Assembly: GCA_016874975.1 (NCBI GenBank)
Contig: VGSQ01000002.1
Span: 98-64,097, forward strand
Length of the DNA: 64,000 nucleotides
Reading direction: 5' to 3'
DNA from: Deltaproteobacteria bacterium
GTDB taxonomy: Bacteria > Desulfobacterota > Desulfobaccia > Desulfobaccales > 0-14-0-80-60-11
The notes below the pieces were generated by a model that saw only the letters and a program-made list of their open reading frames with translations, was not told the DNA's origin and ran no database searches. The translations under genes were made by a program, and so were the position numbers. Shown piece after piece: positions 9,213-57,787 of this stretch (the stretch's first letter is position 1; the number at the start of each line of letters is the position of its first letter).

Positions 9213-9431
9213 CCCGCCTCTGTCCGGCAGCCGCGCCTGAGCCTGCGAGGCTCTCTCCAGAAGGATGAAAAGCTGTGGTGGCGCAGGCTCCCAGCCTGCG
9301 TGGGTACATCCGGGGGCGGGTGTCATCCAGAGGGCGCGCCGTGCACGCCCAGGTCTTTTCATGCTTTGCGGGTGAGCCTCGGGCTCATGCGCGATTTTCT
9401 CAAGGGCGCCCGGCCCTTAACGACGACGGCG

Positions 9432-21548: not shown

Positions 21549-21684
21549 CTTGAAAAGTCGTTCCGTAGGGTGCGCACCGCGCACCATTGCCCGGGCCTGA
21601 CGGCGAGCAGAGACGCCCGCCCCACCGGCATTTTCATGGGTTACGGGTGGGCCAAAGGCCCATGCGCGACTGCTCTGAAAAGTT
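21549..21684. repeat. Composite intergenic mosaic repeat (modules R1 + GACGCCCGCCCCACCGGC + TTTTCATG-hairpin)
   Basis: CTTGAAAAGT...GTAGGGTGCGCACCGCGCACCAT...AGACGCCCGCCCCACCGGC-ATTTTCATGGGTTACGGGTGGGCCAAAGGCCCATGCGCGACTG...CTGAAAAGTT. The same module order recurs at 50219-50415 and 54705-54810. Confidence 0.85.
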
Positions 21685-22048
21685 AAGAAAGAGGTTGGCA
21701 TCCTGCAGAGGGTTTTCAAAACCGCCGCCCGTTCCCAGGACAAAGGGAGAATTTTGCAAGAGCCTCCTCCGGCAACACCATTTCCAACAGACGCAAGGCC
21801 ATATCTCCTCCCGAGGCGGCCTCCGCCCGGCGTCGCTGCCGTAAGGGGCCCGGGCGCGGATCCCGGTTCCTGGCTCGGCCGCCGGGCGCGCAAGTTCGCC
21901 GACGCACCTGCAGACAGTCGTGGCGACCGCGCCGGCCGCTCATTTAGAGCCGCGGCAGGGCGGCGCCGCATCTCTTCTGCGGCCGGGTCTTCCGGGCCTC
22001 TCCGCTTCAGCATGGGGCGACCCACGCGCTGCACCCTGCCTGCTGCCG

Positions 22049-24949: not shown

Positions 24950-25259
24950 GTTTCCTCCATTGACGCCAGGGCTCCGGGAGGGCTCACCGGAGATGGTGGA
25001 AGATGGGAGCCCGCCTCCCCGGAGCCTGGTTTCCGAGTTGCCGCCCAAGAACAGAAACGATGCTGTTTTACCGGATAGCGCCTAATCTCAGACGATATCC
25101 GGGCAGTCGCGGCTGCGCCCGGGGTCTTTCCAACGGGATGAAAGGCAGCTTCCGGGGGGAGGACCGGGGGAGCGGCGGCTCCCGTGGCACAGGCGTCTCG
25201 CCTGTGATTCCCTCCTCCTGGCCCCCTCCTGCGAGGGGAGGGGGAATAAAGGAACTTTT

Positions 25260-25362
25260 ACCGTGAAAATTCCGGTTCTGTAGGGGCGGGTTTGAAACCA
25301 ACCCCTACAAAAGGTTTTTCATGCCCGGGGGTGGCCCCGTTGGGGCCATGAGCATTTCATAG
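25260..25362 (+). repeat. 103-bp dispersed repeat, copy 1 (GTAGGGGCGGGTTTGAAACC hairpin + TTTTTCATG-GGCCCC hairpin)
   Basis: Differs from 30413-30515 at only 3 positions, and both copies are in the same orientation. Confidence 0.9.
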
Positions 25363-25512
25363 CAGGCTCCGCCACAGTATCTTCAAAGGCGCCTCCGTGT
25401 GCCGGGTCGGATGCCGCCGGGAAGGCGGGTCGACAACGTCCGGAACCAGGGCGGAGGGCGCAGGCCGGCCCTCCAGGCGCCGCGCCCCGGGTCATTTCCG
25501 CCGATGGCCCCT

Positions 25513-30378: not shown

Positions 30379-30412
30379 ATGGTGCGTAAGACGCACCCTA
30401 CGGAAGGACTTC

Positions 30413-30515
30413 ACCGTGAAAATCCCGGTTCTGTAGGGGCGGGTTTGAAACCCGCCCCTACAAAAGGTTTTTCATGCCCGGGGGTGGCCCCGTTGGGGCC
30501 ATGAGCATTTCATAG
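30413..30515 (+). repeat. 103-bp dispersed repeat, copy 2
   Basis: Near-identical to 25260-25362. Contains the perfect hairpin GTAGGGGCGGGTTTGAAACCCGCCCCTAC. An inverted R1 module at 30379-30401 immediately precedes it. Confidence 0.9.
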
Positions 30516-30675
30516 GAGACAGCTTGGGAAAAAACTGTCCCTGTTCCCCTTGTCCGCAGGCCCCCGGTGCGTGCCCACGGTGTTGTTTATCTTTATAAAA
30601 TCCCTTGATATTTCGCCAAATACCTGGTAGGGTCGGGCCATCATTGCCACCACCCACCTGCGAGGAGGGAACAAG

Positions 30676-31953: not shown

Positions 31954-34900
31954 ATGACCCGAAGCCGGCTGCTGTATCTGGTATTCTTCCTGATGATGCT
32001 TCTAGCCGCCCCGGGGCAGGGTGCGGACCCTCTTCTGGAGGAGGCCCTCTCCTTAAACCGGCAGGCGATGCAGCTTTATCAGGCCGGCCGCTATCAGGAG
32101 GCCCTGCCTTTGGCTCAGCGGGCCCTCGCCATCAGAGAAAAGGCCTTCGGTCCCGAGCATCCCCACACCGCCGTCGTCGTCAACACCCTGGGTCTGCTGT
32201 ATGAGGGCCTGGGAAAATATGACCAGGCCCTGCCCCTGTTACAGCGGGCTCTCAAGATCAGGGAACAGGTTTTAGGGCCGGAGCACCTCGACACCGCCTC
32301 CAGCCTCAACAACCTGGCGGGACTGTACCGGGTCATGGGCGCCTATGAGCAGGCCCTCCCCCTGTACCGGAGGTCCCTGGCAATCTACGAAAAGGCCCTG
32401 GGCCCCGAGCACCCCCTCACCGCCACCAGCCTCAACAACCTGGCCCTCCTGTATAAAGCCATGGGCGCCTATCAGGAAGCCCTGCCCCTGTACCGGCGGG
32501 CTCTCAAGATCAGAGAACAGGTTTTAGGGCCGGAGCACCTCGACACCGCCTCCAGCCTCAACAACCTGGCGGAACTGTACCGGGTCATGGGCGCCTATGA
32601 GCAGGCCCTGCCCCTGTACCGGAGGTCCCTGGCGATCTACGAAAAGGCCCTGGGCCCGGAGCACCCCCTCACCGCCACCAGCCTCAACAACCTGGCCCTC
32701 GTGTATAAGGGCATGGGGGCCTATCAGCAGGCCCTGCCCCTGTTCCGGCGGGCCCTGGCAATCGATGAGAAGATCCTGGGGCCGAAGCATCCCGACACCG
32801 CCGTTGATCTCAACAACCTGGCCGAGCTGTACCGGGTCATGGGCCTCTATGAACAGGCCCTGCCCTTATACCAGCGGTCCCTCAAGATCAGGGAAGAGGT
32901 TCTGGGAGCGGAGCATCCGGCCACGGCCACCGCTCTGAACAACCTGGCCATCCTTTCCGCAACCATGGGCGCCTACGGGCAGGCTTTGTCCCTGTACCAG
33001 CGGGCCCTCAGGATCAGGGAAAAGGTCCTGGGGCCGGAGCACCCCCTCACGGCCGACAGCCTGGGCAACCTGGCTGAACTCTACTACACCCAGGGGCGCT
33101 ATGAGGAGGCCGAACCTCTCTTCCAGCGGGCCCTGAGGATTTCGGAAAAGGCCTGGGGCCCCGGACATCACGCCACCGCCGCGGCCCTCAACAATCTGGC
33201 CGAACTGTATCGGGTCATGGGGCTCTATGAACAGGCCCTGCCCTTGTATCAACGGGCATTGGAAATCAAGGAGCAGGTGCTGGGGCCGGAACACCCCTCC
33301 GTGGCGCTCAGCCTGAACAACCTGGGGGGGCTGTACCTGGCCCGGAAAGAATACCGGTCGGCGGAGGCCTGTTTCCGGAAAACCCGGGTTAAGGCCGGCC
33401 TGATCTACCTTCACCTGGCCCAGGGACAATGGCGGGAAGCCCTGGAGCTGCTCCAGGACCAGGCCCCCAGCTGGCGGGCCACCCCCCAATACCGGGTGCA
33501 GCACCATGCCCAGCAAGGTCTGGCTTTGGCCGGAGCGGGGCGCCTCAGGGAGGCGGCCCTGGCGCTGCACCAGGCGGTCAAGGGAGTGGAGGAGCTGCGC
33601 CGCCGGGCCTCCGGGGAGAAGGGGGGCTTTTTCCAGGCCGGTCTGCTGGGAGGCTACATCCGTCCCTACCAGGAGCTGGTGAGCGTCCTGGCGGAGATGG
33701 CCCTCAAAGCCGAGGCCCTGCCGCCGGGCCTGGAGGATTACGGCCCCGACGCCGCGGCCGCGGCCTTCTACTTCGCCGAAGCCACCAAGGCCCGGGTCCT
33801 CCTGGAGTCTCTGGCCCGGACGGCCGGGAAGGAGGCCGCGGTGGAGATTCCGGCCGAGCTGCGGGCCCGGGAAGAGAGCCTGCTCAACCAACTGGCCGCG
33901 CTGGAGAGCCAGTGGGAGAAGGCTCTGCAGGGCGGCGAAGCGGCCGTCAAAGAAGTGCAGGAGCAAAAGGCCCGCCTGGACGGCGAACTTAAGGCCCTGA
34001 TCCGGGAGTTGCGTCGGAAATACCCGTTATACGCCGCGCTGCACCACCCGCTGCCCGTCCCTGCCGCCGACCTGCCTCTCAAAGACGACGAAGTTCTCCT
34101 GGAGTATGCCCTGGGCGAAAAGGCCGGCTACCTCATGGTGGTGCGGCGGGGCGGCGTCAAAAAGGTGATGCAGCTACCGGTCGGCCGGGAGGGGATGGAG
34201 GAACAGGTCAGGGCCTTCATGAAGCCTTTTCTCGACCAGGACCCCGACGGCTTCTCCCTGTCTCGCGCCAAACAATTATACGATCTGCTCCTGGCCGGGG
34301 TGTTGCCTGAGGTCAAGGAAGAGGAGCGGCTGATCATCATCCCGGACGGCATCCTGGGTCTGCTGCCCTTCGAGGCCCTGGTGATGCAGCCGGGCCGGGA
34401 GGTTAAGGACAGCCTCTTCGTGGGTGACAGGCATCAACTGAGCTATTATCAGTCCGCCGCGGTGCTGGCCTTGAAGCGGCGTTTGCAGGCGGCCTCCCCG
34501 ACACGCCTTCTGTTCGCCCTGGGGAACCCGGTGTTCAGCGAGAGCGACCCACGCTGCCGGACTTCCCCCCCGGGAGCAAAGCCTGCCTCCGGGAAGGCGG
34601 CGCCTCCGCCGGAGGCCGCCTTTACCGCCCTGGCCACCCATGCCGCCTGGGGCAAGACCTCCCGCAGCCGCGCCCAGGGGCAGGAGCTGCGGTACGAGCC
34701 TCTGGAGGAAACGGAGGCTGAGATTCGGACCATCGCCCGGCTCCTGGGGATCGAGCCTTCCCCCCCCGACGTGCTCCTGAACCTCCAGGCCACGGAGACC
34801 ATCCTGCGCCAAAGCCCCCTGGGGGAATACCGCTACCTCCACTTCGCCACCCACGCCGACCTGTCGGACAAGGTCCAGGGCATCAGGGAGCCCTTCATTC

Positions 34901-40600: not shown

Positions 40601-40634
40601 GGGGTCGATCTTGAGGTGAGGGCTGGGGGGTTAT

Positions 40635-40725
40635 GGTGTCAGGTGCCAGGTGCCAGGTGCCAGGTTTCCTCTGGTTCCCAAGCTCCTGCTTGGGAACCGG
40701 AATGCTCGCCAAGCTCACGCTTGGC
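40635..40725 (+). repeat. Heptamer array (GGTGCCA)n + conserved double hairpin element, copy 1
   Basis: GGTGTCA GGTGCCA x3 GGTTTCC, then GGTTCCCAAGC-TCCT-GCTTGGGAACC and GCCAAGC-TCAC-GCTTGGC. Starts 35 nt after the tupA stop. Confidence 0.85.
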
Positions 40726-43189: not shown

Positions 43190-44001
43190 TTAGCCGATAA
43201 GCTGGCTCACCTCCTGCCGGGAGGCGCTCTCCAGCATGGCCTTCTTCACCAGGTTCAAGTGCTTGATGATCAAGTCGATCTTTTCCAGGTTTACGTGGGT
43301 GTTCCCCTGGTACACCTTGGCCAGCACCCGGCAATCATCCGGGGAAAAGGATTTCACGATGAGGCCCGTGACCGCGTCCAGGACCTTCTCCCACCGGGAG
43401 ACCAATTCCAGGTCTTCCTTCTTGGGCAGGGCAAACAGGGCGGTCTGCTTCTTGGCGTCTACCATGGCGGTGACGAACCGCCGCAGGTGGTTATAGGTTG
43501 AAAGCTCCCCGGCCCTGATCTTCTGGAAGACCAGCTCCTGGTCGTCCGGGTTCGCCAGCCGGCTCATTTCGAAGGCCTGGGATGGGGAGATGATCCCCTG
43601 CACCATGGCCTCCTGGAACTTGGGGGCCAGCTTCAGCAGGCTCAGGCGCTCATCCACCCGCCACACCTGTTTGAAGCCCAGCTTTTGGGCCAGTTCCTCC
43701 CTGGTGTAGCCGGAGTCGATCATGGACTGAAAGGCCCGGGCCTCCTCCAGGGGGGTCAGGTCCTGGCGCTGGATGTTTTCCACCAGGGCCATTTCCGCCA
43801 CCTGCTGGTCATCAGCCTCCAGCACCCTGACCGGGACCTTTTCCAACCCGGCTAGGTGAGCCGCCCGCCAGCGCCGCTCCCCGGCGATGAGCATGAACCT
43901 GCTATCCCGGGGCGCCACCACCAGGGGCTCGATCAACCCTTGCTCCTTGATGGAAAGAGCCAGTTCTTCCAGGGCCTCCCGCGGAAAGAACTTGCGGTCG
44001 G
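43190..44001 (-). pseudogene. ParB/Spo0J-like N-terminal-domain protein, 5' end disrupted by a group II intron
   Basis: ALEELALSIKEQGLIEPLVVAP...LIAGERRWRAAHLAG...ALVENIQRQDLTPLEEA is the ParB box II/III region. The reading frame upstream of codon PDRKFF is intron sequence. Confidence 0.8.
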
Positions 44002-44467
44002 GTAAAGAGGTCTCATTACTGAGGCCCCCCCCTAAGAACCGGACGTGAGAGTTTCCCCTCATCCGGCTCAAGTCGTTCAAAACCCCCACATGGTCAATGA
44101 AGGGTCGGCAACATACTGGCAATCTTGTTTATGCAACTGCCGATGGCAGATAGGATGCAAAAGCTGAAGATTTGACAGTACGTCTTTCCCGCCCTGAAGC
44201 TTCGGGATAACGCGGTGCATGTGCCACCCCGTTACCAGCGTGAAGTCTCCATGACAGATCGGACACTTTCCCTTCTGGGCCTGCCAAAATCTCCTAACCC
44301 TTCCATATAAAGCCAGGTCATTCTTGACCAAGAGAGCTTTCCTATTCTCAAAGTAAGGTTCCCAGGCCATATCATGTTGGTGATAGTTTGCCCACCCCCG
44401 AATAATCGGGTTTAGCAATTTAATCACCGATTCTTGTTTGGCTGTTTTGTAATCCTTCTGAAAACGG
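44002..44467 (-). mobile_element. Group II intron, 3' fragment: C-terminal maturase (X) + HNH endonuclease region of the IEP, then domains V and VI
   Basis: IEP remnant LNPIIRGWANYH...CPICHGDF...HMHRVIPKLQGGKDVLSNLQLLHPICHRQLH. Domain V on the minus strand at 44036-44069, GAGCCGGAUGAGGGGAAACUCUCACGUCCGGUUC, has the AGC triad, GAAA tetraloop and AC bulge. RT domains and intron domains I-III are absent. Confidence 0.85.
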
Positions 44468-50089: not shown

Positions 50090-50415
50090 CTCTGAAAAGT
50101 TCCTCAGGCGGCCTCGAGGGTCACCTGAAATCCTAAGTTCCGAAGGGTGCGCACTGCGCACCGTAAGGATGCTTAACTTTTCATAATTTATGGGTGAGCC
50201 CCAGGCTCATGAGCAACTGTCTTGAAAAGTCAGTGACCTTCTCTTTGCGCCCTTTGCGCCTTTGCGAGAAATTTTTCTCACGCTCAGCCACCAAGTTCCG
50301 TAGGGTGCGTCTCACGCACCATTGCCGGGGGTCGTCGGCGGGCAGGGACGCCCGCCCCACCGGCCTTTTCAGGTGTTATGTGCGGGCCGACGGGCCAGGC
50401 GCGACTGGTTGGGAA
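50090..50415. repeat. Dense cluster of mosaic intergenic repeat modules
   Basis: R1 hairpins at 50142-50164 and 50300-50322. TTTTCAT-hairpin modules at 50178-50230 and 50366-50415. GGGACGCCCGCCCCACCGGC module at ~50344-50363. Confidence 0.85.
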
Positions 50416-50575
50416 TAAAAAAATGTCAGGGTTTGCTGAATTTATTCTGCGAATCGCCGATGAAGATGCTGGAGGGGCGAATCGGCCTGTTAGGGTGGCG
50501 GCGCGCCTCAGAGGGGAGGCCCCGGCCGCAGCGGGACCGGCCGGTCCGGCCACCCCAGGTCGGAGGGGAGACACG

Positions 50576-52480: not shown

Positions 52481-52713
52481 CGCCGGCCGGCCTCGCCATT
52501 CCATCCTCGCTTCCACCATAAAGTTGTTCCGTAGGGTGCGCACCGCGCACCATGGCCTGGGTCTGGCGGCGGGCGGGGACAACCCTGACCCCCTTGCGCC
52601 ATATTTTCCCCGCCGGCGTGGACATTTCCCTCCCAATGATTATGTTTAGAAATAATATTGTAAAAGCAAAAGCCGGCGCAGTCCGGCCCCCAACCTCCTC
52701 CTGTGAGGCCATC

Positions 52714-53616
52714 ATGTCATGCTGTCGGCCATCCTGGTTCCGGGCGGCGCTGATCATCTTCCTGGCCGCCCTGTTGACGGCCGTGGGGCTGACCTTCTCC
52801 CCGGGCCCGGTCATGGTTCAACCCCTTTTGGGAGCCAATATTCCCGACACCTCGGAGGCGCCCCTGATTATGAAAACATCTTCCACTGACGCAGGCAAAA
52901 ACCCGGCGATTCCCCCTCTGGACGCGGCCCCGCCGGGCCGTCTGGAAACGGCCACCTTCGCCTTGGGGTGATTCTGGGGTCCGGAGGCCCGGTTCGGGGC
53001 CTTGCAGGGCGTCATCCGCACCCGGGTGGGGTACGCCGGGGGCGCCCGGCCTGATCCCACCTACCACCGCCTGGGCGACCACAGCGAGGTGGTGCAGATC
53101 GACTTCGACCCTCGGCAGATCACCTACGCCCAACTGCTGGCGGTCTTTTGGCAGAGCCACGATCCCACGAGCCAGGCCTGGTCTCGGCAATATCGGACCG
53201 CGGTCTTCTATCACGACGACATCCAGCAGCGGCTGGCCCAGGAGAGCCGGGAGCGGGTGGCCGCCCGGCTGGGAGGCAGGATTCACACCACCGTGGAGCC
53301 GGCCACCACGTTTTACCTGGCCGAAGGCTACCATCAGAAGTATTACCTGCAGCAGTCCCGCACCTTCTGGGCCGAGTATCTCAGGGTGTATCCGGCGGTG
53401 GGCGACCTGATCAATTCCACCGCCGCCGCCCGGGTGAACGGCTACCTGGCCGGCTACGGCGCGGCACAGGACTTTCAGGCCGACCTGCCCCGCCTGGGGC
53501 TGTCCCCCGAGGCCCGGGAGAAGCTTTACACCCTGGTGGCCGGCTCGAGGCGCTTCCGCCAGGCCGAACAGAAAGGGGAAGAGGCCGGGGCCGCCTGCCC
53601 GCGGCCTGGCCAGTGA
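52714..53616 (+). CDS. msrA: Peptide-methionine (S)-S-oxide reductase MsrA, exported; in-frame UGA (selenocysteine) at the catalytic position
   Basis: ORFs 52552..52971 and 53002..53616 share one frame and are separated only by TGA 52969-52971. Read-through gives ATFALG-U-FWGPEARFGALQGVIRTRVGYAGG (GCFWG motif). N-terminal anchor MSCCRPSWFRAALIIFLAALLTAVGL. The start codon is uncertain. Confidence 0.72.
52985..53002 (+). promoter_or_regulatory. Candidate bacterial SECIS hairpin
   Basis: AGGCCC-GGTTCG-GGGCCT begins 13 nt after the UGA. The loop contains GGUU. Confidence 0.5.
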
Positions 53617-53620
53617 GGCA

Positions 53621-53711
53621 GGTGTCAGGTGTCAGGTGTCAGGTTCTATGTTTCACTCTGGTTACCAAGCTCCCGCTTGGGAACCGGATTGCCCGCAAAG
53701 CTCTGCTTTGC
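53621..53711 (+). repeat. Heptamer array (GGTGTCA)n + conserved double hairpin element, copy 2
   Basis: GGTGTCA x3 GGTTCTA, then GGTTACCAAGC-TCCC-GCTTGGGAACC and GCAAAGC-TCT-GCTTTGC. Starts 5 nt after the msrA stop. Homologous to 40635-40725. Confidence 0.85.
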
Positions 53712-53984
53712 TCCTGGACACACCCGGCGGGATGCGCCCCGCTTTCCCGCCCTACAGCTCTGAGCCCCATAACTATGCATAACTTTTCATGCTTTGCGGG
53801 TGAGCCGGAGGCTCATGAGCAACTGTACTGAGAAACACTTAAATGTCCAGCGCCGTTTCTCCCAAGCGCGAAACATCAGGGTCAGGCGGAAGGCGCTTTT
53901 CAGGGATGTCCCAGGGGCAAAGATCGTGCCGGGTCGCCATGATTCTTAACTTTGGGCGAGTTGACGAAAGGAGAACAGTTAACC

Positions 53985-54503
53985 ATGCGGCTTTCTTCCT
54001 TCCTGCCCCGGGCGCTGCTGGGGGCCGCCTTGCTGCTGACATTGATGGTGGCCGCCGGGGACCCTGTACTGGCCGGACCCTCTTCCCCCCCCAAAGGAGA
54101 AAAACCGGTGATCGAAAAAGTGGTGAAAACCGACGAGGAATGGCGCCGCCTGCTGACGCCCGAGCAATACCGCATCCTGCGGCAGAAGGGCACGGAGCGG
54201 GCCTTCACCAGTAAATACCATGACTTCAAAGGCAAGGGGGTTTACCACTGCGCCGGGTGCGACCTGCCGCTGTTCAGCTCCGAGCAGAAGTTCGACTCGG
54301 GCACCGGCTGGCCCAGCTACTGGGCCCCGCTGGCCCCGGAGCAGATCCGCACCCAGGACGATTCGAGCTTTTTCATGAAGCGCATCGAAGTGCTGTGCGC
54401 CCGCTGCGACGGTCATCTGGGGCACGTCTTCAACGACGGCCCGCCGCCCACCGGCCTGCGCTACTGCATGAACGGCGCGGCCCTAAAATTTATGGGAAAG
54501 TAG
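53985..54503 (+). CDS. msrB: Peptide-methionine (R)-S-oxide reductase MsrB, exported
   Basis: Start at MRLSSFLPRALLGAALLLTLMVAAG (signal peptide). Zn-binding CAGC...CARC. GWPSY, HLGHVFNDGP, and catalytic RYCMNG. Confidence 0.9.
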   Translation: MRLSSFLPRALLGAALLLTLMVAAGDPVLAGPSSPPKGEKPVIEKVVKTDEEWRRLLTPEQYRILRQKGTERAFTSKYHDFKGKGVYHCAGCDLPLFSSEQKFDSGTGWPSYWAPLAPEQIRTQDDSSFFMKRIEVLCARCDGHLGHVFNDGPPPTGLRYCMNGAALKFMGK

Positions 54504-54704
54504 GAGCTTTCCCCCAAAATTCCGGCGGCGCGCCATGGTCTCCCCCATATCAGGGGGCGCGCTGCGCACCCTACGGGCTGACCACCAGTTATAGGGTGGC
54601 CCGCGGCCGCCGACCCCGGCGTGCACGGCACGCCCTATGACAGTCCCGCCCTTTCTTCATCCGGGCAAAATCCTTGAGTTGTTTGCAGCGGCCGCACCAC
54701 CCGT

Positions 54705-54810
54705 CGTTCGTAGCGCACTGCGCACCATAACCATGGGCCGGCGGTGGGCAGGGACGCCCGAACTTTTCATGGGTTACGGCTGGCCCGACGCCCCAGGCGC
54801 GACTGCCTGG
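54705..54810. repeat. Composite mosaic repeat (degenerate R1 + GGGACGCCCG + TTTTCATGGGTTACGG hairpin module)
   Basis: GTAGCGCACTGCGCACCAT...GGCAGGGACGCCCGAAC-TTTTCATGGGTTACGGCTGGCCCGACGCCCCAGGCGCGACTG. Same module order as 21549-21684. Confidence 0.8.
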
Positions 54811-55045
54811 AAACCTTATGGCCCCGCCGTCCTTCCCCTCCCTTTTCCCCAGTCCACCGGCCAGGCAGAGCCTGGCCGGCCGGCGGGTTCCCCAGCGGGA
54901 GCTTGGGAACCAGGAAGAAACCCAAAACTAAGCCCTGACCCCACAACTTAAAAACTCATATTGTTTTCACATTGCCCTGCAACAAACAACGTAATCGGAT
55001 AATAACGCAGGGGCGGTTCGCAAACCTCCCCTCGATAAACGTTGG

Positions 55046-55073
55046 TTGCATGTGAAACGGAAAATGGTATAAG
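55046..55073 (+). promoter_or_regulatory. Candidate sigma70-type promoter upstream of the radical SAM gene
   Basis: TTGCAT (55046-55051), 16-nt spacer, TATAAG (55068-55073). It would place the heptamer array in the 5' UTR. Confidence 0.3.
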
Positions 55074-55074
55074 A

Positions 55075-55165
55075 CCTGAAGCCTAAGCCCTAAAAACTAA
55101 AAGCTAAAACCTGAAACCTAAAACCTAAAACCTATAACCCAGAACCCGGAACCCAAAACCCGGAC
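55075..55165 (+). repeat. Tandem heptamer array, 13 units, CCTAAAA/CCCAAAA type
   Basis: CCTGAAG CCTAAGC CCTAAAA ACTAAAA GCTAAAA CCTGAAA CCTAAAA CCTAAAA CCTATAA CCCAGAA CCCGGAA CCCAAAA CCCGGAC. Confidence 0.95.
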
Positions 55166-55204
55166 CCGCTCCCCCCTGCCGCCGGGCTTTGCAGGAGCGG
55201 GTGA

Positions 55205-56218
55205 ATGTGCTACAGTGCCAGGTATGCCGCCGGGGCGCCCGGCTTCGGCGCAGGGGATTTCATCAAGGGAAACATCGCCTCCATGCCCAGCAAAACCTAC
55301 AACGGTCTCTCCTCCCGCCTGAGAGGCCTGGCCCGGCAGGACCCCGCCGTCATCCCCAGCTTCTTCCGCTATGAATTCCGCCGCCGCTGGGGGGGCGCCC
55401 AGGACCGGCGCCTCACGGCCGGCGGCGGGGCCGTGCTGCCGGCTTTGATCAGCCTCAATCCCACCCGGCGCTGCAACCTGCGCTGCCGCATGTGTTTCCA
55501 ATACCGGCGGGAAAGCGAAATCCCGGACACCCTGGCCTGGTACCACGCCGACCAGGAACTGCCCCTGTCGGCCTGGGTCAACCTGTTGGACGAGGTGGCC
55601 GCCTGGCGCCTGCGTCAGAGCGGCCCCCACGGGCCCCCCTTGCCGCCCTGGAGCCGGCTCCTGGACCGGCTGGCCACCTGGCGCCCGGTGGTTTATGTCA
55701 CCGGCGGCGAGCCCCTGCTCTATCCACAGGTCGTGGAATTGCTGGCCGCGGCCCGGTCCCGCCGGCTGCTGGTGCACCTGCAGACCAACGGCACCCTGCT
55801 GGCCGGGGCGGCCCCGGACCTGGCCTCCCTGGGGCTGCAGATGGTGTCCGTCTCCCTTGACGGCCCCCCCGAGGTGCACGACCGCATCCGGGGCGTGCCG
55901 GGCAGCTTCCGGGTGCGCCGCCGGGCCCGGGGCCGCATCCCGGTGGGCTTCTCCCCGGACTTGCCGGACAGCCTGCTCAGCCCCTATTACCTGGACCTGG
56001 CGCACCCGTTCCCCCAGGAGTGCCGCCACCTGTGGATGGCCTGCCGCATCCTGCCGGACGGCTCGGTCTCCCCGTGCCTGCACCTGGTCATGGGCCGCAT
56101 CACCGAGGCGCCCCTCAGCCGCATCTGGAACAATGACCACTGCCGCAGCCTCCGCCGCCTGGCCGCGCAACGGCTGTTCCCCGGCTGCACCCGCTGCTGT
56201 TACCGGCGGTTTCAGTAG
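55205..56218 (+). CDS. Radical SAM enzyme with Cys-rich SPASM/twitch-like C-terminal region
   Basis: AGGAG RBS 7 nt upstream. CNLRCRMC (CxxxCxxC), VTGGEPLLY. C-terminal CRHLWMACRILPDGSVSPC...CRSL...GCTRCC. Confidence 0.85.
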   Translation: MCYSARYAAGAPGFGAGDFIKGNIASMPSKTYNGLSSRLRGLARQDPAVIPSFFRYEFRRRWGGAQDRRLTAGGGAVLPALISLNPTRRCNLRCRMCFQYRRESEIPDTLAWYHADQELPLSAWVNLLDEVAAWRLRQSGPHGPPLPPWSRLLDRLATWRPVVYVTGGEPLLYPQVVELLAAARSRRLLVHLQTNGTLLAGAAPDLASLGLQMVSVSLDGPPEVHDRIRGVPGSFRVRRRARGRIPVGFSPDLPDSLLSPYYLDLAHPFPQECRHLWMACRILPDGSVSPCLHLVMGRITEAPLSRIWNNDHCRSLRRLAAQRLFPGCTRCCYRRFQ

Positions 56219-56253
56219 CGTCGCCCGCGGGCGCGCCCGGGCATGGAGGGAGG

Positions 56254-56351
56254 GGTTTTGGGTTTTGGGTTTTGGGTTTTGGGTTTTGGGTTTTGGGTTT
56301 TGGGTTTTGGGTTTTGGGTTTTAGGTTTTAGGTTTTGGGTTTTAGGTTTTA
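56254..56351 (+). repeat. Tandem heptamer array, 14 units, GGTTTTG/GGTTTTA (complement of the upstream array)
   Basis: Nine GGTTTTG units, then GGTTTTA GGTTTTA GGTTTTG GGTTTTA GGTTTTA. An R1 hairpin at 56356-56378 follows directly. Confidence 0.95.
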
Positions 56352-56498
56352 GAGCGTAGGGTGCGCACCGCGCACCATGAATAAGGCCAGGGGAACCGGT
56401 TGGCGGCTAACGGCGTGGGGGGGGGGAACGGGGCAGGATCCCGGCAGCCCCGGCCCCCTCCCCCACCGACAACTTTTCCGATACCAAATTCTCTATCC

Positions 56499-57767
56499 AT
56501 GAGTGCCGAGCCTATGCCTCTTGCCGGGCGCCGGCGTGAACAATCCCGGGCCCGCCTGGCCGCCTGGGCCTGTTTTCTCGCCACCACGCTGCATCTGGCC
56601 TTTCTGCGCCCCAATATCACCCTCATCACCGGGGAGCGAGCCAAGGTCTTCTCCGGCCTGCTGTGCGCCCTGTGTCTGGCGGTCTGTCTCCTGGACGCCC
56701 GCCGCCGGGAGGCCGGCAGCCGCACCGAAGTCCTGGTCTCCCTGGCCCTGGCCGCCCTGATGGCAGCCAGCGGCCTGGCCGGCCTCACCCCCTTCTCTTC
56801 CTCCCTCAGGGGCTTCGTGGTCCTGGCCTCGGGACTGGGCGGCTTCTGGTGCGCCCGCCTCCTCCTGACCACCCCCGAAGCCCGGCGCTTCTTCGTCCGT
56901 TTCAGCCTGGCCACCCTGGCCGGCGTCCTGCTGGTGGGCCTCATCTCCCATCTGGTCTGGGGGGAGGTCCACCGCGCCCTGGACGTGAACCAACACCCCG
57001 CCGCGGCCCGCATCCTCCTGCTTTGGTTCGCCCCGCTGGCCGTGCTCCTGGGGCCCGACGCCCCCCCGCTCCCACGTCTGGGCGCCTGGCTGCTGCTGGG
57101 GTTGAGCTACCTCGTCCTTTACCTCAACATTCTCCGCTCCACCCTGGTGATCCCCCTCCTCCTGGGGGTGCAGGCCGCCCTCTTCAAGGCCTGGCGCTGG
57201 CGCTACCTGCTGCTGGCCGCCCTCCCCCTCTCCCTGGCAATCCTCTATTTCTTCCTCCACCTCCCCCCGGAGCGCACCGGCAAATCTGCGGAGCCCATCT
57301 ATTACCGGGTGGAAAACTACCGCTTCTCCCTCTATCTGGCCCTGCGCCACCCCGTCCTGGGCATCGGTCTCAGGGCCCCCCGGGAGGGCTTTCTGGATGC
57401 TTACGACATCAAGTATCCCCACGTCACCAGGGAACAGTTCACCGAGTCCGTGCGCCGCATCCGCACCTCGGAAAACATCTTTCTCACCTTTCTGGCCGAA
57501 GTGGGGATTCCCTTCACCCTCCTGTATGTGTTCGCCCTGGCGACCCTCCTCACCCGCCTGGTGCGCCGGGCCCGGGCTCCCGACCCCCGGGCGGCCCTCC
57601 CCCCCCTGGCCCTGCTCCTCCCTCTCACCGCGGGGCTCCTCCACTTCCAGGTCCTGGACGGACTTTTGCACCCCCAGGTGAGCTGGTTCTTTCACGTGCT
57701 GCTGGGCCTGATCGGCCGGGACCGGCACAAGGGGGGACGGAAGGGGGTTTTGGGTTCCGGGTTTTAG
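56499..57767 (+). CDS. O-antigen ligase/polymerase-like (Wzy_C family) polytopic membrane protein
   Basis: Start at MSAEPMPLAGRR. About 10 TM segments. The loop motif SENIFLTFLAEVGIPFTLL resembles HN.FL..LAE.G..G of O-antigen ligases. The last codons (GVLGSGF) are encoded by a heptamer array. Confidence 0.65.
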   Translation: MSAEPMPLAGRRREQSRARLAAWACFLATTLHLAFLRPNITLITGERAKVFSGLLCALCLAVCLLDARRREAGSRTEVLVSLALAALMAASGLAGLTPFSSSLRGFVVLASGLGGFWCARLLLTTPEARRFFVRFSLATLAGVLLVGLISHLVWGEVHRALDVNQHPAAARILLLWFAPLAVLLGPDAPPLPRLGAWLLLGLSYLVLYLNILRSTLVIPLLLGVQAALFKAWRWRYLLLAALPLSLAILYFFLHLPPERTGKSAEPIYYRVENYRFSLYLALRHPVLGIGLRAPREGFLDAYDIKYPHVTREQFTESVRRIRTSENIFLTFLAEVGIPFTLLYVFALATLLTRLVRRARAPDPRAALPPLALLLPLTAGLLHFQVLDGLLHPQVSWFFHVLLGLIGRDRHKGGRKGVLGSGF

Positions 57768-57787
57768 GTTCCGAGTTCCGGGTGTGC
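57746..57787 (+). repeat. Short heptamer array (GGTTTTG/GGTTCCG type)
   Basis: GGTTTTG GGTTCCG GGTTTTA GGTTCCG AGTTCCG GGTGTGC. Overlaps the stop codon (57765-57767) of the preceding gene. Confidence 0.85.

Follow-up and report, generated by a model that had tools for sequence, protein, structure and literature searches.

Mirror-ordered inverted heptamer arrays at both boundaries of a radical SAM/SPASM gene as probable copies of a local intergenic repeat element

Why should a single bacterial gene stand between two arrays of tandem heptamers that are inverted with respect to one another and mirrored in the order of their units? The question is raised by a locus within a stretch of 64,000 nt (hereafter the window; contig VGSQ01000002.1, 63.4% GC) from a Desulfobacterota-like metagenome-assembled genome (MAG), where the open reading frame (ORF) 55205-56218, encoding a radical SAM (rSAM)/SPASM protein, is flanked by two low-GC islands, one holding each array. 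A preliminary description had seen there either a repeat-delimited cassette, possibly a substrate for DNA inversion or excision, or a control at the RNA level through pairing of the two arrays. The answer that we consider fairly probable is a more modest one, namely that a known kind of intergenic heptamer repeat has come to lie at each end of one gene, its two copies deriving from one local element composed of a leader and an array. Three features are central to the argument:

55075-55165, G-rich strand minus: upstream heptamer array, 13 degenerate units of CCTAAAA/CCCAAAA type.
55205-56218, plus strand: radical SAM/SPASM gene, 337 aa, with CNLRCRMC.
56253-56350, plus strand (the G-rich strand being the coding strand): downstream heptamer array, 14 units, G-quadruplex-capable.

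Read on the plus strand, the upstream array runs CCTGAAG CCTAAGC CCTAAAA ACTAAAA GCTAAAA CCTGAAA CCTAAAA (units 1-7) and then CCTAAAA CCTATAA CCCAGAA CCCGGAA CCCAAAA CCCGGAC (units 8-13). All 13 units announced in the preliminary description are present, only four of them being exact and the remainder deviating by 1-3 bases; on the minus strand, the same array reads GGGTTTT GGGTTCC GGGTTCT GGGTTAT AGGTTTT AGGTTTT AGGTTTC AGGTTTT, and continues. The 14 units of GGTTTTG/GGTTTTA type reported 3' of the gene are found as well, placed here at 56253-56350, with 10 perfect GGGTTTT units followed by AGG, AGG, GGG, AGG and AGG types. The mirrored order also holds, GGG/CCC types being proximal and AGG/CCT types distal to the gene in both arrays. 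Both arrays consist of head-to-tail 7-nt tandem units, for which TRF returns 14.0 copies of period 7 with 96% matches downstream and 10-13 copies with 72-79% matches upstream, the lag-7 autocorrelation amounting to 1.0 and 0.88 for the two arrays. A periodicity scan of the 64 kb picks up four arrays at lag 7, while lags 5, 6, 8 and 9 yield nothing; with no short tandem period other than 7 in the window, the two arrays are not a matter of chance. Regarding G tracts, 10 consecutive GGG(T4) units downstream and five consecutive GGG tracts on the minus strand upstream (GGGTCCGGGTTTTGGGTTCCGGGTTCTGGG) provide each array, by sequence prediction, with the four or more consecutive G3 tracts and short loops that mark G-tract heptamer simple-sequence repeats (SSRs). 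Together, the arrays make up the longest inverted repeat in the window (55070-55176 versus 56245-56351), 107 nt in length, 79% complementary and with arms 1068 nt apart; in register, the arms show 23 mismatches, i.e. 17 transitions and 6 transversions, and their longest exact match is 19 nt.

Repeats of this kind have been described in Xanthomonas and Nostoc, where the G-rich heptamers GGGAATC and GGGGA(C/T)T occur in 2 to 26 units and follow a positional rule, the G strand lying at most 50 bp past a stop codon when on the coding strand or before a start codon when on the non-coding strand (Rehm et al., 2015; PMC4692102). In the same work, GGGAATC forms 70-75 inverted pairs per Xanthomonas genome, a G-quadruplex was formed in vitro, most repeats were found to be transcribed and to adjoin genes of all classes, no link with mobile elements appeared and phase variation was judged unlikely (PMC4692102). 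The window arrays are like this class in being intergenic 7-nt tandem units with a G3-4 tract, in the ORF-end rule and in the frequent inverted pairs. The downstream array begins 34 nt past the rSAM stop codon in sense orientation and the 5' (GGG) end of the upstream array on the minus strand lies 39 nt before the ATG at 55205 in antisense orientation, both within 50 bp of an ORF boundary taking that ATG; translation of rSAM may, however, begin at M27 (55283), the position at which homologues start, and the second distance would then be 117 nt. Once both boundaries of one gene are occupied, the orientation rule suffices by itself to give a mirror-image bracket. The window arrays are unlike the published class in their unit, GGGTTTT/AGGTTTT, and their Desulfobacterota-like host, as well as in a shared G-rich leader and a clustered instead of genome-wide distribution, on 87 kb of sequence; the pairs published are convergent and stand near each other inside a single intergenic region, whereas that of the window is divergent and extends over an entire gene (1.07 kb).

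The rule also extends to this unit in other genomes. When 185,579 species genomes were scanned for GGTTTTRGGTTTTRGGTTTTRGG, GGTTTTR x3 arrays were recovered in at least 119 loci of unrelated prokaryotes, the hosts among the matches listed being Bacteroidota (Kordia, where an array reaches 74 units), Cyanobacteriota (many cyanobacteria), Acidobacteriota, Pyrinomonadaceae, Verrucomicrobiota, Desulfobacterota, archaea and others. For the 88 arrays among the matches listed that had ORFs on both sides, the median distance to the nearest ORF was 25 nt from the 5' end of the G strand and 98 nt from its 3' end, the 5' side being the closer one in 62 of them (p = 1.6e-4). Same-family arrays in both orientations within 8 kb were seen, by degenerate detection, in 20 of the 119 loci listed, mostly as close convergent pairs; at one of these loci (L114) a single gene is bracketed in the geometry of the window, and at another (L101) a divergent gene pair. 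The preliminary description had named, as what would count against it, arrays scattered beside unrelated genes with no preference for pairing: the scatter is indeed observed, in the window and in the 119 or more loci of other prokaryotes. Inverted pairing, on the other hand, is a recognised trait of the class (PMC4692102), and is therefore not special to the rSAM gene.

Other heptamers allow more distant comparisons. The cyanobacterial STRR sequences (Calothrix/Anabaena) are intergenic tandem heptamers with several unit sequences per genome, for which an origin by slippage has been proposed; the label is a cyanobacterial one, the units differ from those of the window, and neither an orientation rule nor a leader is described. 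Long simple-sequence repeats are said to show an excess of heptamers, a finding attributed to Mrazek and co-workers in 2007. As relayed in a later paper on TAACTGA repeats, Mrazek found heptamers to be the most abundant class of long SSRs, polymerase slippage being proposed as their origin (PMC4679880). The TAACTGA arrays of marine Beggiatoaceae, cyanobacteria and Bacteroidetes (MacGregor, 2015; PMC4679880) are likewise intergenic, adjoin unrelated genes and are patchy over phyla, the same phyla dominating the GGTTTTR matches listed, but they mostly stand a few nt before start codons on the sense strand, in 2-6 units, with one inverted case reported. In Geobacter metallireducens, also of the Desulfobacterota, multicopy heptanucleotide and octanucleotide sets are found mostly as opposite-strand pairs (Aklujkar et al., 2009; PMC2700814). 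These include 4-5 tandem heptamers (GGGACCG, MTYCTGA) at dozens of sites, and several classes form inverted pairs at variable distance, like the window arrays; they differ in being shorter, with a fixed 3-5 units, in being partly intragenic, in their sequences and in being read as IHF/HU or regulator sites.

Beyond their units, the two arrays share a G-rich leader, which recurs with a third array at the end of the neighbouring gene:

55169-55185, minus strand: G-rich leader CCGGCGGCAGGGGGGAG, directly before the upstream array when the G strand is read 5' to 3'.
56237-56252, plus strand: G-rich leader CCGGGCATGGAGGGAG, directly 5' of the downstream array, beginning 18 nt past the rSAM stop codon.
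57722-57783, plus strand: third copy of the element, i.e. leader CCGGCACAAGGGGGGAC, then GGGTTTT GGGTTCC GGGTTTT AGGTTCC GAGTTCC.
56514-57767, plus strand: gene for a Wzy_C (O-antigen-ligase-like) membrane protein, its last ~12 codons and stop codon coming from the third leader+array copy.

The leader, 16-17 nt long with the consensus CCGG..CA.GGRGGGAS, precedes all three GGGTTYY arrays on the G strand; the pattern, derived post hoc, is matched three times in the window where 0.18 matches would be expected, each time 5' of a GGGTTYY array. In the third copy, the leader occupies 57722-57738 (plus strand) and the array 57745-57783, overlapping the Wzy_C stop codon, and the C-terminal ~12 residues of Wzy_C are encoded by this copy, the C-terminus of the relative differing from that very point. 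All three arrays grade from GGG-type units at the 5' side to AGG-type or degenerate units at the 3' side. The gradient from G to A was considered as a polarity of the whole class and rejected, with 6 versus 7 arrays in other genomes, and the leader motif was not found beside the GGTTTTR arrays of other organisms. Since leader and gradient are shared locally and the gradient is not general elsewhere, the mirrored unit order would reflect common descent in inverted orientation, the two arrays being probably copies of one polar local element. Separately, in a cyanobacterial MAG (L114, positions 1-40) an AGGTTTT array past a stop codon has GGAGGGA before it, like positions 56245-56252 of the window, which may be a coincidence or the sign of a more general G-rich leader.

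As for the enclosed gene, the CNLRCRMC motif and Cys-rich SPASM C-terminus pointed out at the start are confirmed by Pfam matches to PF04055 (2e-17) and PF13186 (7e-11). Compared with six homologues (alignment A1, columns 244-356), the window protein shows a clean in-frame deletion of ~113 residues, rSAM homologues being 402-424 aa long. The deletion falls between GSFR and VRRRARG and removes the second half of the barrel together with the linker to SPASM, about one third of the rSAM catalytic core; the Pfam Radical_SAM match ends at model position 129 of 166, and between CX3CX2C and the SPASM domain the core of the partial TIM barrel is incomplete. Independent assemblies of this locus come from four JGI samples and one SRA run, and all five are collinear with the window at 99.96-100% identity, in one orientation and with identical arrays and an identical deletion. 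Since all five encode the same 337-aa protein, the deletion is real, and an assembly artefact was rejected for the arrays as well. Its junction lies between short CGCCG-like repeats visible in the DNA of the relative, from which a microhomology-mediated event may be suspected. Judging from the fold, and from its mapping onto structures of the SkfB, PqqE and BlsE type, the enzyme is probably inactive. No NCBIfam family reaches its cut-off with this protein (best 72 bits versus 650). In agreement with the preliminary description, which had seen no obvious adjacent precursor peptide, a search for small ORFs upstream gave only ORFs of 27-31 aa without homologues, and no named family of maturases of ribosomally synthesised and post-translationally modified peptides (RiPPs) was recovered either. 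The 27-aa and 31-aa ORFs, at 54972-55055 (plus strand) and 54956-55051 (minus strand), lie in an AT-rich stretch with no evident ribosome-binding site (RBS) and no visible counterpart in relatives, and are unlikely to be precursor-peptide genes.

The surroundings indicate that the gene has not moved. At the closest relative locus (L006), where the rSAM protein is 69% identical, the order is MsrA, rSAM (409 aa), 27 nt, Wzy_C and glycosyltransferases, with neither msrB nor a heptamer array, and no heptamer array was found at any of eight relative loci, i.e. L006 and seven further ones. As this synteny is kept and the relatives' loci lack the arrays, the rSAM gene stands in its ancestral place and the arrays are additions of this lineage. 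Wzy_C had been called an unusual partner, which holds for more distant homologues, the contexts of which vary (glycan, sulfotransferase and other genes) so that no conserved partner is established for the rSAM family; it does not hold for L006, where the pairing is conserved. The idea of a repeat-delimited cassette finds no support, given the ancestral MsrA-rSAM-Wzy_C order without arrays and the seven further array-free loci, and a mobile or cassette origin of the rSAM gene was rejected on the same evidence. Hallmarks of a miniature inverted-repeat transposable element (MITE) or foldback element were not seen either, there being no direct repeats beside the arms and one such pair only, and the enclosed DNA is an ancestral syntenic gene. 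By Pfam, no recombinase or transposase lies within ~10 kb of rSAM, the families found there being GGDEF, MsrA, MsrB, rSAM, Wzy_C, K+ transport, PAS kinase and response regulator. Nothing here marks the arrays as the ends of a mobile or invertible cassette.

What of a role in RNA? According to this explanation, which survives best among the rivals and which we nonetheless regard as unlikely, a transcript starting 5' of 55075 and running past 56350 would pair its C/A-rich 5' arm with its G/U-rich 3' arm, and the resulting 5'-3' stem of ~100 bp, cut by RNase III or masking the RBS, would set the level of rSAM and/or uncouple Wzy_C from it. Two features bear on where such a transcript might begin and end:

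55046-55073, plus strand: promoter-like site TTGCAT-N16-(TGg)TATAAG in a stretch of 39-46% GC, a weak candidate.
56415-56467, plus strand: strong G-run/C-run hairpin between the REP-like hairpin and the start of Wzy_C, with ACUUUUCC after it.

The in-register complementarity proposed for the two arrays is borne out: as plus-strand RNA, 93% of arm positions pair when G·U is included, the duplex energy of the two arms is -154 kcal/mol, and, should one RNA carry both, the long stem is the predicted minimum-free-energy (MFE) structure, with 96 inter-array pairs in the fold computed for 55074-56400. Taken singly, the arms are nearly unstructured (-6.4 and -4.3 kcal/mol), although with the G-quadruplex option of ViennaRNA quadruplexes are placed in the G-rich downstream arm, at -22.6 kcal/mol. 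From the sequence, it is plausible that one transcript covers both arms. No canonical terminator was found between the rSAM stop codon and the downstream array, the next strong hairpins (REP-like, then G/C) lying 3' of that array; the hairpin at 56415-56467, although no canonical terminator, could be a transcript-end or 5'-UTR structure. AT-rich DNA of promoter-like character is confined to a stretch just 5' of the upstream arm, and the 27-nt gap between rSAM and Wzy_C in L006 suggests an ancestral operon. The promoter itself, proposed earlier as TTGCAT-N16-TATAAG, is in part upheld by a TGn extended -10 and its AT-rich setting, but its -35 agrees at only 3/6 positions, the last -10 position is G and a consensus promoter scan does not call it.

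Several observations speak against a selected stem. The downstream arm consists almost entirely of G and T, so that a transition in its partner nearly always leaves a wobble pair, and an enrichment in G·U as a sign of selection on RNA was rejected as a by-product of arm composition. The arrays are absent from relatives, so no support comes from covariation; the gene to be regulated is probably inactive; and like arrays stand singly, with no partner, at other gene ends. Separately, searching Rfam for known RNA families over the region gave no match at the gathering score, matches at E<=1 being at chance level. The 16S and 23S rRNA flanks offer the classical precedent, pairing into RNase III processing stems over 1-3 kb of RNA. 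Those stems are conserved and covarying, with demonstrated cleavage, whereas the window arms are simple repeats without conservation.

A further explanation takes the leader and array, with or without the REP hairpin, as a small non-autonomous mobile element inserting at ORF ends, the bracket resulting from two independent insertions or from a foldback-type structure with arms enclosing the gene by chance. It calls for the other small repeats of the window to be considered:

40632-40716, plus strand: CAGGTGC x4 and hairpin B, 33 nt past a stop codon, the sole heptamer array outside 53.6-57.8 kb.
53614-53719, plus strand: CAGGTGT x4 array and hairpin B (TGGTTACCAAGCTCCCGCTTGGGAACC), the array beginning at the MsrA stop codon.
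54852-54945, minus strand: hairpin B and a degenerate heptamer tail, inverted partner of 53614-53719.
56355-56378, plus strand: REP-like hairpin A (CGTAGGGTGCGCACCGCGCACCAT), with GTAG head and 7-bp stem, abutting the 3' end of the downstream array.

Besides the two arrays around rSAM, heptamer arrays thus occur at four places, those at 40632, 53614 and 57745 overlapping or following stop codons and that at 54929 being a degenerate inverted copy. They include a second family, CAGGTGY x4, joined to a conserved hairpin B. Elements of the REP/REPIN type combine a GTAG head with a GC-rich hairpin, often occur in inverted doublets and are mobilised by RAYT transposases. Hairpin A (CGTAGGGTGCG-N5-CGCACCAT) resembles them in its GTAG head and 7-bp stem, the heptamer arrays themselves not being palindromic REPs, and has eight copies in the window, at 21560, 30375 (minus strand), 50137, 50295, 52526, 54555 (minus strand), 54711 and 56351. 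It also occurs, with no conserved flanks, in at least 119 metagenome contigs (L129-L247) from soils, sediments, lakes and marine sites, often in inverted doublets and with compensatory changes at the closing pair. With its GTAG head, GC-rich hairpin and multiple copies, it may be taken as a very widely distributed family of REP/REPIN type.

For the mobile element speak the leader and polarity common to three copies, the replacement by one of them of the last ~12 codons and stop codon of Wzy_C, the joining of second-family arrays to hairpin B in three places, the abutment of hairpin A on the downstream array and the local clustering of copies. Against it, neither target-site duplications nor defined termini are seen, only three copies were seen, the leader is missing at the GGTTTTR arrays of other organisms, and the published class showed no tie to mobile elements (PMC4692102); the window regions examined gave neither a transposase nor a RAYT gene, no search having been aimed at RAYT. 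We consider such an element quite improbable. A bolder variant would make the leader+heptamer unit a previously unrecognised, self-copying boundary element targeting ORF ends, the inverted pairs of which act as an RNase III-processed clamp of ~100 bp or as G-quadruplex caps, insulating or silencing the enclosed gene and uncoupling it from Wzy_C. This is speculation to which we give little chance; if true, it would give widespread, functionless-looking heptamer arrays a concrete role.

Around these repeats, other observations may be recorded. The msrB gene (53985-54503) is bracketed by an inverted pair of 77 nt, 74% complementary, each arm being a short heptamer array plus hairpin B, and msrB with its flanking repeats looks like an insertion, L006 having msrA directly before rSAM and no msrB. 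A composite intergenic element of ~130 nt, combining REP hairpin A, a GGGAC..GCCC hairpin and TTTTCATGGGTTACGGGTGRGCC...GGCYCATG, has 4-7 copies in the window (21554-21690, 50289-50420, 52520-52650 and 54695-54818, with parts at 9329-9410, 50137-50232 and 53757-53838), and a related 257-nt unit is repeated 2.4 times in tandem in a contig probably of the same organism (L144, 8631-9258). Two 109-nt copies with 95% identity (25257-25365 and 30410-30518) contain the palindrome TTCTGTAGGGGCGGGTTTGAAACCCGCCCCTACAAAA, a second type of GTAG-headed hairpin. In 721 kb of metagenome contigs selected for hairpin A, there are 24 lag-7 arrays, as against 0, 3, 3 and 6 at lags 5, 6, 8 and 9. Contigs chosen for this hairpin only also hold inverted heptamer pairs with other units, GTTATCA/TGATAAC, CAGTCAG/CTGACTG and CGGTTTT/CAGAAAA (L137 342-612, L199 683-988 and L196 2763-6703), 137 nt to 3.9 kb apart; heptamer arrays seem generally to occur in inverted pairs, whatever their unit. 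Elsewhere in the window, positions 43997-44071 (minus strand) match the Group II intron catalytic domain of Rfam (RF00029; 60.5 bits, E = 2e-9) in the 5' part of an ORF with ParB_N/HTH_ParB domains (43190-44122, minus strand), and positions 32086-33393 hold ~9-10 coding tandem copies, with 65-83% identity, of a 126-nt (42-aa) unit, the translated consensus of which resembles TPR-type repeats.

The array comparison called for at the outset bears on the two weakest rivals. No variation in unit number was observed among the five assemblies, which come from four samples of one lake and possibly represent one clone, and more distant relatives have no array at all. A contingency locus, in which a change in unit number in the downstream array (163 nt 5' of Wzy_C) or in the upstream one would switch a surface-polysaccharide gene, could invoke the pure run of 10 identical units, prone to slippage, the nature of Wzy_C as an envelope-glycan gene and the phase-variable heptanucleotide repeats known in pathogens (hmw1A/hmw2A, neuO). 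This is very unlikely given the single array length, the other window arrays flanking MsrA and unrelated genes, and a class that adjoins genes of all functions and for which phase variation was judged improbable (PMC4692102). As for inversion or excision of the 1.07-kb segment, suggested by a 107-nt inverted repeat of 79% identity enclosing exactly one gene, it is hardly credible, with no site-specific recombinase within ~10 kb, a longest perfect arm match of 19 nt, one orientation and no empty site in all five assemblies, a gene in ancestral synteny, and simple recombination being unable to excise between inverted repeats.

The reading that we favour, i.e. boundary repeats copied locally, can be put as follows. 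A G-rich leader of 16-17 nt followed by GGGTTTT-type heptamers would form one element, belonging to the intergenic heptameric SSRs with G tracts and a propensity for quadruplexes, which would sit at ORF boundaries with the G strand starting beside the ORF and reading away from it. Copies would have arisen in this lineage by local copying, replication slippage would have expanded and homogenised the downstream copy, and the upstream copy would have decayed, the setting being 4 kb of DNA in which REP-like hairpins and a second heptamer family crowd around the decayed rSAM gene. Their physical effect, if any, would be non-B structures at gene boundaries, whether a G-quadruplex formed by the G-rich strand as DNA or as RNA, an R-loop-type structure, or a stem of ~100 bp if the arms are co-transcribed; at most, they may serve as boundary or stability elements for the flanking transcripts. 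Given the orientation of the arrays, transcripts entering the gene from either side would moreover carry a C-rich, G-free tract resembling a Rho loading site, and those leaving it would carry the G-rich tract.

A number of points weigh against this reading. Of the 5-6 heptamer arrays in the 64 kb, 4-5 lie within 53.6-57.8 kb and one in the other 60 kb, and none was found in 23 kb of two contigs probably of the same organism (same lake, near-identical tetranucleotide usage, shared repeat); simple genome-wide slippage does not predict such clustering, and a leader common to the copies suggests that a defined element has been copied. Array lengths identical in four lake samples, possibly of one clone, are unlike a hypermutable microsatellite. 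The gene proxies behind the 88-array comparison, longest non-overlapping ORFs, are crude, and no function has been established for G-rich heptamer repeats (PMC4692102). Finally, a very stable RNA stem is thermodynamically possible by the energy model, and a selected RNA role conceivable. At this locus, small repeats are locally concentrated about a gene in decay.

Since the enzyme is probably a decayed copy, no new rSAM system is revealed here, and the meaning of the locus lies with the repeats. Among the long simple-sequence repeats of many bacteria, heptamer arrays are over-represented most strongly, and the present analysis adds to them the GGGTTTT/AGGTTTT unit in a Desulfobacterota-like lineage as well as independent support, from 88 arrays of unrelated genomes, for a G strand directed outward from the nearest ORF. 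The inverted pair, of a rare kind in that it spans a gene and shares a leader, hints that such arrays can be copied as units and need not arise by slippage only, and the locus offers a convenient natural test of the structures that paired arrays may adopt as RNA or DNA in vivo.

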